Below, in pieces: positions 569 to 5,088 of a stretch of DNA of 64,000 bases; the stretch's first letter is position 1; the number at the start of each line of letters is the position of its first letter. Position numbers and translations under genes: made by a program. Origin of the DNA: a virus (lineage: Duplodnaviria > Heunggongvirae > Uroviricota > Caudoviricetes); the IMG/VR virus record IMGVR_UViG_2531839524_000004. One strand, 5' to 3'. Below the pieces are notes generated by a model. It saw nothing but the letters and a program-made list of their open reading frames with translations, was not told the origin of the DNA and made no database searches.

Positions 569-586
569 GCAATAGTACGATAAAGA

Positions 587-611
587 GGCCCCATGCTCTT
601 GATGGGGCCTG
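587..611. terminator. GC-rich hairpin between convergent small ORFs
   Basis: aggccccat-gctcttg-atggggcct, 9-bp stem; lies just 3' of both the + strand remnant and the - strand small peptide ORF. Confidence 0.4.
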
Positions 612-623
612 TAGCAACTAGCG

Positions 624-707
624 TTATGGACGCTGGTTTACGTACTCAATGATCGCTTTGATAATCGCGAACATCGGCGGCACGATTTTGAACAGTAAGT
701 TAACCAT
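624..707 (-). CDS. small hydrophobic peptide, 27 aa (type I toxin-like)
   Basis: Own translation of the minus strand: MVNLLFKIVPPMFAIIKAIIEYVNQRP; GAGG Shine-Dalgarno about 9 nt upstream; below the 60-aa cut-off of the ORF track. Confidence 0.3.
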   Translation of the reverse strand: MVNLLFKIVPPMFAIIKAIIEYVNQRP

Positions 708-949
708 AACAGGCCTCACTTAGTGTTATCGCGCCTAGCTGCAAATACCTTTGGGCTTGCCTTTGCAGTTGCAATATCTGTAGTCGCCAGATACTTACGG
801 CACGATTTCGAGTTAAGGTAAGGTTTTAGAGTCACCAAAAACCTGGACTTAAATCTTCTTTGAGAACAACGATGTTTAGTAAATGGTCATTATTACCTGG
901 TATGACCACTCAACGTTTCTTGATGAATCCAGTACATTCGGTTAATCTT

Positions 950-1038
950 AATTCAGTCGCCAGATACTTATGGCTCAGGAACAGAGCCGCAAACTCTGTT
1001 TCCTTTTAAAAAGCCCAGCCTAGTCAACTGGGCTTTTT
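950..1038 (+). ncRNA. candidate small RNA ending in an intrinsic terminator (antitoxin-like); 5' end not defined
   Basis: Hairpin agcccag-cctagtcaa-ctgggct (1013-1035) followed by TTTTT; region contains a 19-nt repeat (955-973) nearly identical to 782-800, which would lie in the 5' UTR of the divergent small-peptide mRNA. Confidence 0.25.
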
Positions 1039-1333
1039 AATGTCTATTTTTAACCCAACATACCCTCAATACTGCAACATCAGTGTCTTGCGAATTAAGA
1101 TAGTGTGAATAGATTTTTCATGCAAGTGCATAAGCCTGTGGATAACTCAGGAAGGAAAAAGTGACTTCTGCGCACTTTAGACCGGACAAGGCGTTCGAAA
1201 AAGTCAATGGGAAGAAAAAATTTGTTAAAAATAACGTTTGTTTGAATTGTATATATTTATGCCTTTCAATAGTTAGCATCTTATTAACATCTTTTTTAAG
1301 AGATAGAGTTCAAAAATATATAGCTTCAATATA

Positions 1334-1796: not shown

Positions 1797-2897
1797 TCAC
1801 ACTGCGCGGAATGCGATTTCGCCAGGTATTACTTCACCTTGCCAATACATTTGGGCAGCAACGCGATCTGCGAGGTCACGATAAATAGCTGTAAATTCGC
1901 TATCTGGACGACTAATAACGGTTGGTGTTCCGTTATCCAGATCTTCACGAAGAGAGATATGAAGTGGCATTTGGCCTAACAACTGCGTGTTGTATTTCTC
2001 GGCCAGTTTCTGTGCGCCACCGGTGCCAAAAATTGGCTCGTGATGACCGCAGTTACTGCAAATATGCACACTCATGTTTTCAACGATACCCAGTACCGGC
2101 ACTTCGACTTTTTCGAACATCACAATGCCTTTCTTCGCATCGATCAGCGCGATGTCTTGCGGCGTAGTTACCACAACAGCACCAGTTACAGGAATGTTCT
2201 GCGCCAGCGTCAACTGAATATCACCAGTGCCCGGCGGCATATCGAGAACAAGATAGTCCAGATCAGGCCACAATGTTTCCTGCAACATCTGCATCAGCGC
2301 CTTGCTGGCCATCGGTCCACGCCACACCATTGCATTGTCGTCGGTGACCAGATAACCAATAGAGTTGGTTGCCAGGCCATGAGACATGATAGGTGCCATG
2401 TGAGTACCGTCAGGTGAGGTTGGACGTTGGTTTTCCGCGCCCAGCATGGTTGGAATTGATGGACCATAGATATCGGCATCCAAAATACCAACTTTCGCAC
2501 CTTCAGCAGCCAACGCCAGTGCCAGGTTTACCGCCGTGGAGGATTTACCCACGCCGCCCTTGCCTGAGCTGACGGCGATAATGTTCTTAACGCCATTAAT
2601 GCCTGGTTGGTTTTTGACACGCTTAAGCGTGGCAATGTTGTACGACAGCTTCCAGTCAATAGCCTTTGCGCCAGTGATACGGAGCAGATCACCACTACAT
2701 TGCTCTTTCAGGTCTTCAAAAGGCTTATTCCACACGAAAGGCATGATTAGTTCGACATGCAGTGTGTCATCCATCAACGCAACATGGTGTAACGCTTTAA
2801 GCGTAGTCAGGTTGTGTTTCAGGGTTGGGTGCTGAAAATTAGCCAGCGTACCGGCTACCATTGCTCTCAGGGCATCCGGCGATTTGGACTCGCTCAT
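1797..2897 (-). CDS. apbC: Fe-S cluster carrier ATPase ApbC/Mrp
   Basis: 366-aa ORF with P-loop SGKGGVGKS and C-terminal CSNCGHH motif; near-identical to my recollection of E. coli Mrp; divergent from metG as in E. coli. Confidence 0.95.
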   Translation of the reverse strand: MSESKSPDALRAMVAGTLANFQHPTLKHNLTTLKALHHVALMDDTLHVELIMPFVWNKPFEDLKEQCSGDLLRITGAKAIDWKLSYNIATLKRVKNQPGINGVKNIIAVSSGKGGVGKSSTAVNLALALAAEGAKVGILDADIYGPSIPTMLGAENQRPTSPDGTHMAPIMSHGLATNSIGYLVTDDNAMVWRGPMASKALMQMLQETLWPDLDYLVLDMPPGTGDIQLTLAQNIPVTGAVVVTTPQDIALIDAKKGIVMFEKVEVPVLGIVENMSVHICSNCGHHEPIFGTGGAQKLAEKYNTQLLGQMPLHISLREDLDNGTPTVISRPDSEFTAIYRDLADRVAAQMYWQGEVIPGEIAFRAV

Positions 2898-3054
2898 CCC
2901 GTCTCCTTTATTTTAATTTGCGCAATTGTCGCCTTGTAGTGTACTCCAGCTACGACATTTAATCATTTATGAGAAATGCTGTTATCACATGGCAGACATA
3001 AGGCCATTTTGTTACTATCAAGCCCCTTTTCACTACAAAGAAGTAATGCCTACT

Positions 3055-5088
3055 ATGACCCAAGTCGCGAAGAAAATTCTGGTGACGTGCGCGCTGCCGT
3101 ACGCTAACGGCTCAATCCACCTCGGCCATATGCTGGAGCACATCCAGGCTGATGTCTGGGTTCGTTACCAGCGAATGCGCGGCCACGAGGTTAATTTCAT
3201 CTGTGCCGACGATGCCCACGGTACGCCAATCATGCTGAAAGCACAGCAGCTTGGTATCACACCGGAACAGATGATTGGCGAAATGAGTCAGGAACATCAG
3301 ACTGATTTCGCAGGCTTTAACATCAGCTATGACAACTATCACTCGACGCACAGCGAAGAGAACCGTCAGTTGTCCGAGCTTATCTACACTCGCCTGAAAG
3401 AGAACGGTTTTATTAAAAACCGCACCATCTCTCAGCTGTACGATCCGGAAAAAGGCATGTTCCTGCCGGACCGTTTTGTGAAAGGCACCTGCCCGAAATG
3501 TAAAGCACCGGATCAATACGGCGATAACTGTGAAGTCTGCGGCGCTACTTACAGCCCGACTGAACTGATCGAGCCGAAATCGGTAGTTTCTGGTGCTACG
3601 CCGGTAATGCGTGATTCCGAACACTTCTTCTTTGATCTGCCTTCTTTCAGCGAAATGTTGCAGGCATGGACCCGCAGCGGTGCGTTGCAGGAGCAGGTGG
3701 CAAACAAAATGCAGGAGTGGTTTGAATCTGGCCTGCAACAGTGGGATATCTCCCGCGATGCGCCGTACTTCGGTTTTGAAATTCCGAACGCACCGGGCAA
3801 ATATTTCTACGTCTGGCTGGACGCGCCGATTGGCTACATGGGTTCCTTCAAGAATCTGTGCGACAAACGCGGCGACACTACCAGCTTCGACGAATACTGG
3901 AAGAAAGACTCCACCGCCGAGCTGTACCACTTCATCGGTAAAGATATCGTTTACTTCCACAGCCTGTTCTGGCCTGCCATGCTGGAAGGCAGCAATTTCC
4001 GCAAGCCGACCAACCTGTTTGTTCATGGCTATGTGACGGTGAACGGTGCGAAGATGTCCAAGTCTCGCGGCACCTTTATTAAAGCCAGCACCTGGCTGAA
4101 TCATTTTGACGCTGACAGCCTGCGTTACTACTACACTGCGAAACTCTCTTCGCGCATTGATGATATCGATCTCAACCTGGAGGATTTCGTTCAGCGCGTG
4201 AATGCCGATATCGTGAACAAAGTGGTTAACCTGGCCTCCCGTAATGCAGGCTTTATCAACAAGCGTTTTGACGGCGTGCTGGCAAGCGAACTGGCTGACC
4301 CGCAACTGTACAAAACCTTTACTGATGCTGCTGAAGTGATTGGTGAAGCATGGGAAAGCCGCGAATTTGGTAAAGCGATTCGTGAAATCATGGCGCTGGC
4401 TGATCTGGCTAACCGCTATGTCGATGAACAGGCTCCGTGGGTGGTGGCGAAGCAGGAAGGGCGCGATGCCGATCTGCAGGCGATTTGCTCTATGGGCATT
4501 AACCTGTTCCGCGTGCTGATGACGTACCTGAAACCGGTACTGCCGAAACTGACTGAACGTGCAGAAGCATTCCTGAATACAGAACTGACCTGGGATGGTA
4601 TCCAGCAACCGCTGCTGGGCCATAAAGTGAATCCGTTCAAGGCACTGTATAACCGCATCGACATGAAGCAGGTTGAAGCACTGGTGGAAGCATCCAAAGA
4701 GGAAGTAAAAGCCGCTGCCGCGCCAGTAACTGGCCCACTGGCAGATGATCCGATTCAGGAAACCATCACCTTTGACGACTTCGCCAAAGTTGACCTGCGC
4801 GTGGCTCTGATTGAAAACGCGGAGTTTGTCGAAGGTTCTGACAAACTGCTTCGCCTGACGCTGGATCTCGGTGGCGAAAAACGTAATGTCTTCTCCGGCA
4901 TTCGTTCCGCTTATCCAGATCCACAGGCACTGATTGGTCGTCACACCATTATGGTGGCCAACCTGGCTCCGCGTAAAATGCGCTTCGGTATCTCCGAAGG
5001 CATGGTGATGGCTGCTGGCCCCGGCGGGAAAGATATCTTCCTGTTAAGCCCGGATGCTGGTGCTAAACCAGGCCACCAGGTTAAGTAA
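3055..5088 (+). CDS. metG: methionine--tRNA ligase
   Basis: Class I aaRS motifs ([16 protein letters not shown]) and Zn knuckle CPKC...CEVC; start taken at MTQVAKKIL (3055) rather than the upstream in-frame ATG at 2926. Confidence 0.95.

Follow-up and report, generated by a model that had tools for sequence, protein, structure and literature searches.

A putative type I toxin-antitoxin-like module in an unannotated gap of Escherichia coli phage-plasmids

Type I toxin-antitoxin modules are small and diverge fast, and as a result they are overlooked by annotation pipelines; dqlB-agrB was recognised only in 2025 as a main stability determinant of carbapenem-resistance plasmids (PMC12365149). Here we describe a locus within 64,000 nucleotides (nt) of the virus record IMGVR_UViG_2531839524_000004 (Caudoviricetes), a stretch referred to throughout as the window. 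A gap of about 460 bases without annotation, on an Escherichia coli phage-plasmid, is the site of a gene for a short hydrophobic peptide on the minus strand and of a predicted small RNA gene, divergent from it, on the plus strand. An original prediction, drawn from the letters of this DNA, had placed a possible type I toxin-antitoxin-like locus here, between the end of an IS66 element and a UmuD'-like gene; both flanks are as it described, with the gene of the S24 (UmuD-like) peptidase at 1370-1759. Our comparative set comprises 29 distinct module sequences (28 full-length) from Escherichia, Citrobacter, Enterobacter and Kosakonia plasmids, phage-plasmids and prophages. Relatives are denoted by L numbers, with L039 standing for the K-12 dinQ region and L040 and L041 for pOXA-48.

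A peptide gene evolving as a coding sequence

The peptide gene had been read as a 27-amino acid (aa) open reading frame (ORF) with a good ribosome-binding site, and it stands at 707-624 as proposed, with GAGG (717-714) 6 nt before the ATG. Its product, MVNLLFKIVPPMFAIIKAIIEYVNQRP, is a hydrophobic peptide of the single-helix type, with a grand average of hydropathy (GRAVY) of 0.86; an in-frame GTG at 719 would yield 31 aa but overlaps the ribosome-binding site. Conservation of the ORF among carriers had been put forward as a check, and we found it intact in all 29 distinct modules and under purifying selection. The start codon is ATG or GTG across these modules, GTG being confined to one lineage, and a Shine-Dalgarno-like purine run precedes the first ORF in most relatives. 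The ratio of non-synonymous to synonymous changes (pN/pS) is about 0.05-0.2 in most pairwise comparisons of the window-type peptide and reaches up to 1.07 with L010; the peptide genes of the window and of L022 are separated by 9 synonymous and 2 non-synonymous differences. By these comparative measures, the peptide ORF is a coding gene under purifying selection.

Relatives also carry, at the corresponding position, a second, paralogous peptide type, for example MQMLLLFLKLAHPVAVIIMTLLGYWKDR, which aligns with the window type through M..LL.K...P..II...EY...R. Both types stand in tandem behind one leader in L003, L005, L006, L008 and L021, the second type occurs alone in L004 and L007, and the first type alone in the window. 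The tandem ORFs encode different small hydrophobic peptides, each with its own Shine-Dalgarno sequence, about 24 nt apart and served by a single leader and target site, and the window keeps the distal ORF type alone, joined directly to the leader. Judging from this arrangement, one small RNA would control two putative toxins in the tandem relatives.

An exact-sequence look-up returned the peptide just once, called a 'hypothetical protein' in one viral metagenome-assembled genome, and neither the peptide nor the seed strings of the small RNA were found in the searchable literature. A PHROGs search gave just two marginal matches (E 0.16 and 0.064), both to families of unknown function. A resemblance to Fst/Ldr, suggested by the proline within the helix, was set aside, having no Pfam support; no Pfam or NCBIfam model of the Fst/Ldr, Hok, TisB, ShoB or Ibs families matched the peptide (E up to 10).

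A predicted small RNA gene on the opposite strand

Upstream of the predicted plus-strand RNA, a -35 element (TTGATG or TTGAAG) and a -10 element (TAATCT, TAAGCT or TAAGAT), 17 nt apart, are present in 28 of 28 full-length modules, with a spacer that varies in sequence. This promoter matches the consensus at just 7 of 12 positions and is not listed by a generic promoter scan. Given the conserved hexamers and their spacing, the small RNA probably starts at A955, the base with which repeat copy 2 (see below) opens, and would be composed of a single-stranded 5' seed (955-974), a hairpin (977-1004) and a terminator hairpin with its U-tract (1006-1041). The strong intrinsic terminator that had been noted at 1013-1038 was recovered by a terminator scan, which puts it at 1017-1034. 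In the consensus fold, five pairs are kept through changes on both sides, and a covariance model built from relatives scores the window small RNA at 92.7 bits. In the comparative sense, the plus-strand small RNA is a real gene, with a conserved promoter, hairpin and terminator.

Co-varying repeats in the two genes

The proposed link between the two genes is a 19-nt repeat on the plus strand, of which both reported copies were found, AGTCGCCAGATACTTACGG at 782-800 and AGTCGCCAGATACTTATGG at 955-973. With up to 3 mismatches allowed, these are the only two copies in the whole 64-kilobase (kb) window; shuffled sequences average 0.03 copies, and none of 100 held two. The duplex foreseen between the two transcripts, of 18 Watson-Crick pairs and one G-U, is recovered at the sequence level and extended, as C801 = C974 adds one to give 19 Watson-Crick pairs plus one G-U. 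Formed between the first 24 nt of the small RNA and the minus-strand transcript, the seed-target duplex has an energy of -38.5 kcal/mol, against -16.5 +/- 2.7 for shuffles (z = -8.0). It was this seed-restricted test alone that separated the true sequences from shuffles, which reach similar energies in full-length RNA-RNA duplex folding.

For a test of co-variation, the first 24 nt of each small RNA were joined to the reverse complement of its own copy 1, which gave 9 distinct pairs of sequences. Of the 24 base pairs in the resulting intermolecular helix, 9 changed on both sides, an extent reached by 0 of 500 shuffles; 96.8% of cells are standard pairs, and sliding the register cuts pairing to about 30%. 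The same replacements are seen in both copies, namely TC to CT (L006, L008), A to G (L007) and ATAC to TGTT (L010), and a further co-change, TTA versus ATT, separates the window lineage from the remaining relatives. Transitions that distinguish the two copies lie in the direction compatible with G-U pairing in 22 cells (about 6 sites) and in the opposite one in 2 cells (1 site, at a frayed duplex end). A C in copy 1 with a T in copy 2, or an A with a G, gives a G-U pair solely if the plus-strand RNA of copy 2 pairs with the minus-strand RNA of copy 1. The events behind this asymmetry are few and not independent of one another, but it favours RNA pairing, oriented as originally predicted, over a repeat acting at the DNA level. 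Comparison across relatives establishes a coding gene, a small RNA gene and a co-evolving complementarity; the conserved promoter, hairpin and terminator, the co-varying repeats and the direction of the G-U changes support the proposal that a divergent small RNA pairs with the 5' untranslated region of the peptide messenger RNA (mRNA).

The leader and extent of the peptide mRNA

Consensus folding of the minus-strand leader gives an invariant hairpin with 7 invariant pairs at 770-738, the pattern that served to collect relatives (Table 1). A long-range stem is predicted between UCGUGCC (805-799) and GGCGCGA (735-729), with G-U or A-U alternation in relatives. Alternatively, GGCGCGA could pair with codons 7-10 of the peptide gene, through AUCGUGCC in the window and through CUCGCGC in genes of the other type, and would then enclose the ribosome-binding site. 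The target itself is partly displayed as the loop GGCGACU of a predicted local hairpin, the stem of which co-varies with the target in L010.

In relatives, the hairpin at 844-821 contains pairs that alternate as AU/GC/GU and UA/CG, with a UA-to-UG change in 4 of 11. Since it is kept by U-G pairs that are valid on minus-strand RNA alone, the transcript probably reaches at least about 846. Its start probably lies at about 850-1010, because any minus-strand transcript arriving from further right should end at the palindromic terminator of about 1010-1040. At the other end, the terminator at 610-586, read on the plus strand, also follows the truncated upstream gene, and equivalent hairpins stand 3' of the last small ORF in L003 and L005.

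Table 1. Coordinates of the features of the module in the window
Feature	Position	Strand	Basis
Intrinsic terminator of the peptide mRNA, AGGCCCCAUCAAGAGCAUGGGGCCU then a U-rich tail	586..610	-	Terminator scan
Putative toxin gene, 27 aa, MVNLLFKIVPPMFAIIKAIIEYVNQRP	624..707	-	ORF list; intact in 29 modules; pN/pS
Shine-Dalgarno sequence GUGAGG, 6 nt upstream of AUG	714..719	-	Read from the sequence
Conserved leader hairpin CUGCAAA...UUUGCAG	738..770	-	Pattern common across genera; consensus fold
Putative small RNA target (repeat copy 1), 75 nt before the start codon	782..801	-	Pairing, folding and repeat tests
5'-proximal hairpin of the peptide mRNA, AGGUUUU...AAAACCU	821..844	-	Consensus fold; alignment
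Predicted small RNA promoter: -35 TTGATG (920-925), 17-nt spacer, -10 TAATCT (943-948)	920..948	+	Conservation in 28 modules
Putative antitoxin small RNA, about 84-87 nt	955..1041	+	Consensus fold; covariance model; terminator scan

Distribution and carriers

Bases 560-1360 of the window recur in 120 complete E. coli records, of which 110 are plasmids of about 100-120 kb and 10 are chromosomal sites. Like the window, the 110 plasmids also carry apbC and metG, and we take the carrier to be a phage-plasmid because the matching plasmids include the phages Cyrano and CMS-2020a. Cyrano (OV696614), a phage-plasmid of E. coli LF82, is 98.9% identical to the window in this region. Of the 10 chromosomal sites, the one inspected (L002) lies within a lambdoid/P22-like prophage, adjoining the integrase. 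Overall, about 2% of complete E. coli genomes (119/5,426) have the module, mostly on SSU5-like phage-plasmids.

Beyond these records, the module is found in 98 PLSDB plasmids, including some from Citrobacter, Enterobacter, Klebsiella and Kosakonia, and a more sensitive search returned versions at 68-83% identity on plasmids of Citrobacter, Enterobacter and Kosakonia, with the Kosakonia version beside repA on an F-type conjugative plasmid. A search with the conserved leader motif gave 29 viral contigs and 2 genome contigs. As a scan of a species-representative genome collection yielded only 2 loci, most of the module diversity is drawn from plasmid and viral collections. In every annotated record inspected, the module sits within a gap of about 800-1,900 bases without annotation, and its flanking genes vary by lineage; it therefore behaves as a self-contained mobile unit.

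Modules not of the E. coli type have, after the small RNA terminator, a non-coding block, some 170 nt long and strongly conserved (...TATGGTGAGTATTCTAGTAAGGATTCTTTTCAGTACAAGAGTTGATTTTGAGGTTAAATTGAGGTTGCAAAAGGG...ATGTCAATAATTGAGAAAAAAAA...TTTGATCGAGTG). It is found in L003 (about 2200-2400) and L004 (about 2850-3030), as well as in L005-L008, L010, L021, L022 and L029, whatever the neighbouring genes. The block has no Rfam match, and a short ORF inside it is not conserved; the window has at most a vague resemblance to it, at about 1150-1250.

Relation to known type I systems

The closest known systems, both with the same layout, are the chromosomal dinQ-agrB and the dqlB-agrB of plasmids such as pOXA-48 and pOXA-484. 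T1TAdb groups DinQ/AgrB, Zor/Orz, TisB/IstR1 and ShoB/OhsC by organisation, and the present locus has this organisation too, namely a divergent, non-overlapping small RNA with a 5' part that recurs in the toxin leader, ahead of the ribosome-binding site. The locus had been suspected of corresponding to something already described; relatives by layout are known, and the models for their families miss it.

In 2025, dqlB-agrB was shown to be toxic and, by means of compensatory mutants, to be neutralised through base pairing of agrB; it was also shown to work as an addiction module of plasmids (PMC12365149; PMC12317039). The likeness extends to a short helical peptide (31 aa in dqlB, with the N-terminus MINLL there and MVNLL here) and to a divergent, non-overlapping small RNA of about 80 nt, composed of 5' seed, hairpin and terminator, with the seed repeated in the toxin leader. 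Both also occupy overlooked or unannotated gaps of mobile elements and have a similar terminator loop (nhmmer 8.6 bits). On the other hand, the complementarity is 35 nt there and 20-24 nt here, some relatives of the present module have two tandem peptide cistrons, and the carriers are IncL/M, IncN, IncX3 and IncF conjugative plasmids there and mainly SSU5-like phage-plasmids and prophages here. Furthermore, function has been demonstrated for dqlB-agrB, whereas that of the present module is a prediction from sequence comparison.

With dinQ-agrA/agrB of K-12 the module has in common a 27-aa peptide, a divergent small RNA and a leader with plausible mutually exclusive pairings, in which a UCGUGCC-like element on either side, upstream or downstream, is a potential partner of GGCGCGA. 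A leader switch with mutually exclusive pairings was shown for dinQ (PMC5066626), and a dinQ-like switch is conceivable here from the modelled folds. In a side-by-side reading, the distance from the repeat to the start codon is 75 nt here, 76 nt in K-12 dinQ and about 55-60 nt in pOXA-48 dqlB. K-12 has an agrA/agrB pair where the present module has one small RNA, and dinQ is fixed on the chromosome whereas the present module is mobile. Unlike dinQ, the module has no LexA box: CTG-N10-CAG is absent from 501-1333, and the sole box in 501-1400, at 1334-1353, precedes the S24 gene. The zorO-orzO, tisB-istR1 and shoB-ohsC systems likewise combine a small RNA divergent from and 5' of the toxin gene, which pairs across some 18-20 nt at a site well before the ribosome-binding site, and a toxin mRNA with a long structured leader, but have no sequence relationship to the module. 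Rfam OrzO-P (RF02083, gathering score 60) gives the window a sole match of 21.8 bits, on the opposite strand, and L005 34.2 bits, and no Pfam or NCBIfam toxin model matches the peptide.

Kinship with dinQ and dqlB was searched for at the level of peptide, small RNA and leader. With their own peptides, the DinQ (NF041472) and DqlB (NF041473) models reach 54 and 73.5 bits; they match none of 7 peptides of the present family (E up to 10). Profile comparison of the family with DqlB by hhalign gives 32% identity over 25 columns (P = 0.006, probability 6.5%) and, with DinQ, a probability of 0.4% and no alignment. Against Rfam AgrB (RF02891), the window small RNA scores 27.6 bits (E = 0.03), below the gathering score of 40, and shares the loop AGAGCC-C-AACUC. 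We set this match aside as a homology lead: the model finds none of 7 relatives of the small RNA, and the wrong strand of K-12 gives 26.6 bits, so these weak AgrB scores come from the generic terminator shape. The AgrB of pOXA-48 also fails this model, which makes it a criterion narrower than the family. Conversely, the covariance model of the present family, run on pOXA-48 (58.9 kb, L040 and L041), gives one full-length match, which falls exactly on agrB (19.8 bits, E about 0.004). Searches for leader similarity to dinQ and dqlB with blastn (word size 7) and nhmmer give just a 15-nt loop match and terminator similarity, none of it collinear, whereas the dinQ and dqlB leaders match each other in several collinear segments.

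Interpretation and alternatives

Taken together, the comparative evidence makes it likely that the locus is a type I toxin-antitoxin-like module, with an antitoxin RNA that is divergent from and does not overlap the toxin gene. As in type I systems generally, we find a gene for a small (<60 aa) hydrophobic peptide that has a ribosome-binding site and evolves as coding sequence, and a separate predicted small RNA gene with a product complementary to the putative toxin mRNA. The module is probably a new family, built like DinQ/DqlB-AgrB and missed by the search models for those systems; current sequence criteria do not place it in the DinQ/Dql-AgrB family despite the shared organisation. The proposed mechanism is a familiar one, and the family is undescribed, widespread and unannotated.

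Transcription, toxicity, the mode of repression and the biological role are parts of this picture that we infer. From the minus strand would come an mRNA that encodes the 27-aa membrane peptide (707-624), opens with a structured leader at least about 140 nt long and stops at the terminator at 610-586. A promoter of its own would drive the plus-strand RNA, which would extend from 955 to about 1040 (about 85 nt). Through its single-stranded 5' end, this small RNA would pair with a 20-nt stretch of the leader (801-782) that lies 75 nt before the start codon, with the first contact probably made between its AGUCGCC and the GGCGACU hairpin loop of the leader. By analogy with dinQ-agrB, zorO-orzO and tisB-istR1, the duplex may block translation indirectly, by occupying a ribosome standby site or refolding the leader, and/or trigger cleavage by RNase III. 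On loss of the carrier, decay of the short-lived RNA would allow synthesis of the peptide, which would kill or arrest the cell and so stabilise the phage-plasmid or prophage. Such stabilisation, by killing of cells that lose the element, is the most likely role by analogy, given the validated plasmid relatives and the location of the module.

Several observations weigh against such a toxin-antitoxin module. The peptide is less hydrophobic than DinQ or DqlB (GRAVY 0.86 versus 1.79 and 1.60) and has a Pro-Pro pair and two lysines in its helix, and neither Pfam and NCBIfam (E up to 10) nor PHROGs gave a toxin-family match for the peptides. Partition-function folding with the target forced open produced no consistent change in the accessibility of the ribosome-binding site, which leaves the repression step computationally unsupported. 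For the peptide mRNA, neither a generic scan nor a looser one located a sigma-70-like promoter in the window, and the looser scan of 12 relatives gave weak candidates alone, at inconsistent positions. Gene conversion, finally, can also make direct repeats co-vary.

This last point bears on a reading in which the repeats act as DNA, either by binding a protein or as relics of a duplication that gene conversion has kept alike, with no RNA-RNA pairing involved. Direct repeats can indeed evolve in concert without selection on RNA, but the first base of copy 2 coincides exactly with the predicted start of a promoter-terminator unit conserved in several genera, the differences between copies are biased to G-U-compatible transitions for one strand combination alone, and in L010 the strand of the leader hairpin that pairs with the target has changed too, to CACUG/CAGUG. 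Just two copies exist, moreover, and the module encodes no DNA-binding protein, all of which renders this reading highly improbable. A small RNA could also regulate a peptide gene the product of which is a membrane protein other than a toxin, serving for instance in superinfection exclusion, modulation of a host membrane protein or lysis timing. The merely moderate hydrophobicity of the peptide, its Pro-Pro and charged residues and the missing toxin-family match fit such a product, as does the setting of the E. coli module in an accessory-gene cassette beside a LexA-controlled S24 peptidase, on phage-plasmids and in a P22-like prophage. TisB, however, also has charged residues inside its helix, and the module stands beside replication genes on conjugative and other plasmids as well, as is typical of addiction modules. 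In the literature consulted (including PMC12365149, PMC12317039 and PMC5066626), all characterised loci of the same architecture (dinQ, dqlB, zorO, tisB, shoB) encode toxic peptides, and we hold a non-toxin product to be rather improbable.

The remaining question is one of ancestry, since the same mechanism would operate if the locus were a very divergent but true member, by descent, of the DinQ/Dql-AgrB family. The organisation is identical, down to a repeat-to-start spacing of 75 nt versus 76 nt in dinQ; the peptide has the length of DinQ (27 aa) and the N-terminus M-(I/V)-N-L-L in common with DqlB; hhalign pairs it with DqlB at 32% identity over 25 columns (P = 0.006); the one full-length match of the family RNA model on pOXA-48 falls on agrB (19.8 bits); the terminator loops are similar; and the window small RNA scores 27.6 bits against Rfam AgrB and shares a hairpin loop with it. 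Hints of common descent with DqlB-AgrB from these comparisons thus remain, but they are faint. NF041472 and NF041473 find their own peptides and none of the 7 of the present family, the hhalign probability is just 6.5% for DqlB with no alignment to DinQ, and Rfam AgrB misses the other small RNAs of the family and gives 26.6 bits on the wrong strand of K-12. Nor is there collinear leader similarity of the kind that dinQ and dqlB have to each other. Kristiansen et al. (2016) defined dql genes by a striking similarity to the dinQ leader (PMC5066626), and that similarity is absent here. Membership by descent is on balance unlikely, and a separate family of type I-like modules remains the reading that we prefer.

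On that reading, the module seems a further family of the dqlB-agrB kind, unannotated in all annotated records inspected, to which the DinQ, DqlB and AgrB models are blind, and which occurs also on plasmids of at least four genera besides Escherichia. If it is indeed a toxin-antitoxin system, it could help to explain the stable maintenance of SSU5-like phage-plasmids and could offer a target for plasmid curing by supply of the antitoxin RNA. The natural compensatory variants of seed and target, and the versions with one or two putative toxins, provide material for studying how the specificity of RNA antitoxins evolves.

A candidate second small RNA and the surrounding genes

A candidate for a second small RNA lies on the minus strand (about 1090 to 1008). 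It is oriented towards the antitoxin RNA, and the two have one palindromic terminator in common. The candidate's promoter (-35 TTGCAT at 1125-1120, -10 TATCTT at 1102-1097) is conserved in relatives of the E. coli lineage, in which the 17-nt spacer varies (GAAAAATCTATTCACAC, GCATAACCTATACACAC, ATAGTCTCTATAAATCC). The 5' end of this candidate, AAUUCGCAAGACACUGAUGUUGC, is conserved and identical to the antitoxin seed at 14 of 19 positions, and the RNA scores 26.3 bits with the family RNA model. It is not significantly complementary to either the toxin or the S24 mRNA, and its last 30 or so nucleotides would be fully complementary to the terminator of the antitoxin RNA. The E. coli-lineage module might then be a three-RNA circuit, in which the second small RNA acts as an anti-antitoxin that binds or destabilises the antitoxin and times the release of the toxin, for example at prophage induction; we regard this as a very doubtful proposal.

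To the left of the module, an IS66-family end (the transposase C-terminus extends to about 280) replaced the 5' part of a gene that encodes 208 aa in related plasmids, and similarity to the uninterrupted plasmid pN1131_1 begins at base 311 of the window. To the right, a near-perfect LexA box, TACTGTATGTGTATACAGTA, with 2 mismatches to the consensus, lies at 1334-1353 ahead of the S24/UmuD-like peptidase gene, which encodes 129 aa and is solitary, without an adjacent umuC. A cassette of two hypothetical genes, the RNA/peptide module and the S24 gene is common to phage-plasmids and a P22-like prophage. Further along, positions 1797-5088 hold full-length, housekeeping-type apbC/mrp (1797-2897, minus strand) and metG (to 5088, plus strand), and the carrier of this pair is, by its relatives, a non-mobilizable phage-plasmid of about 109 kb rather than a chromosome.

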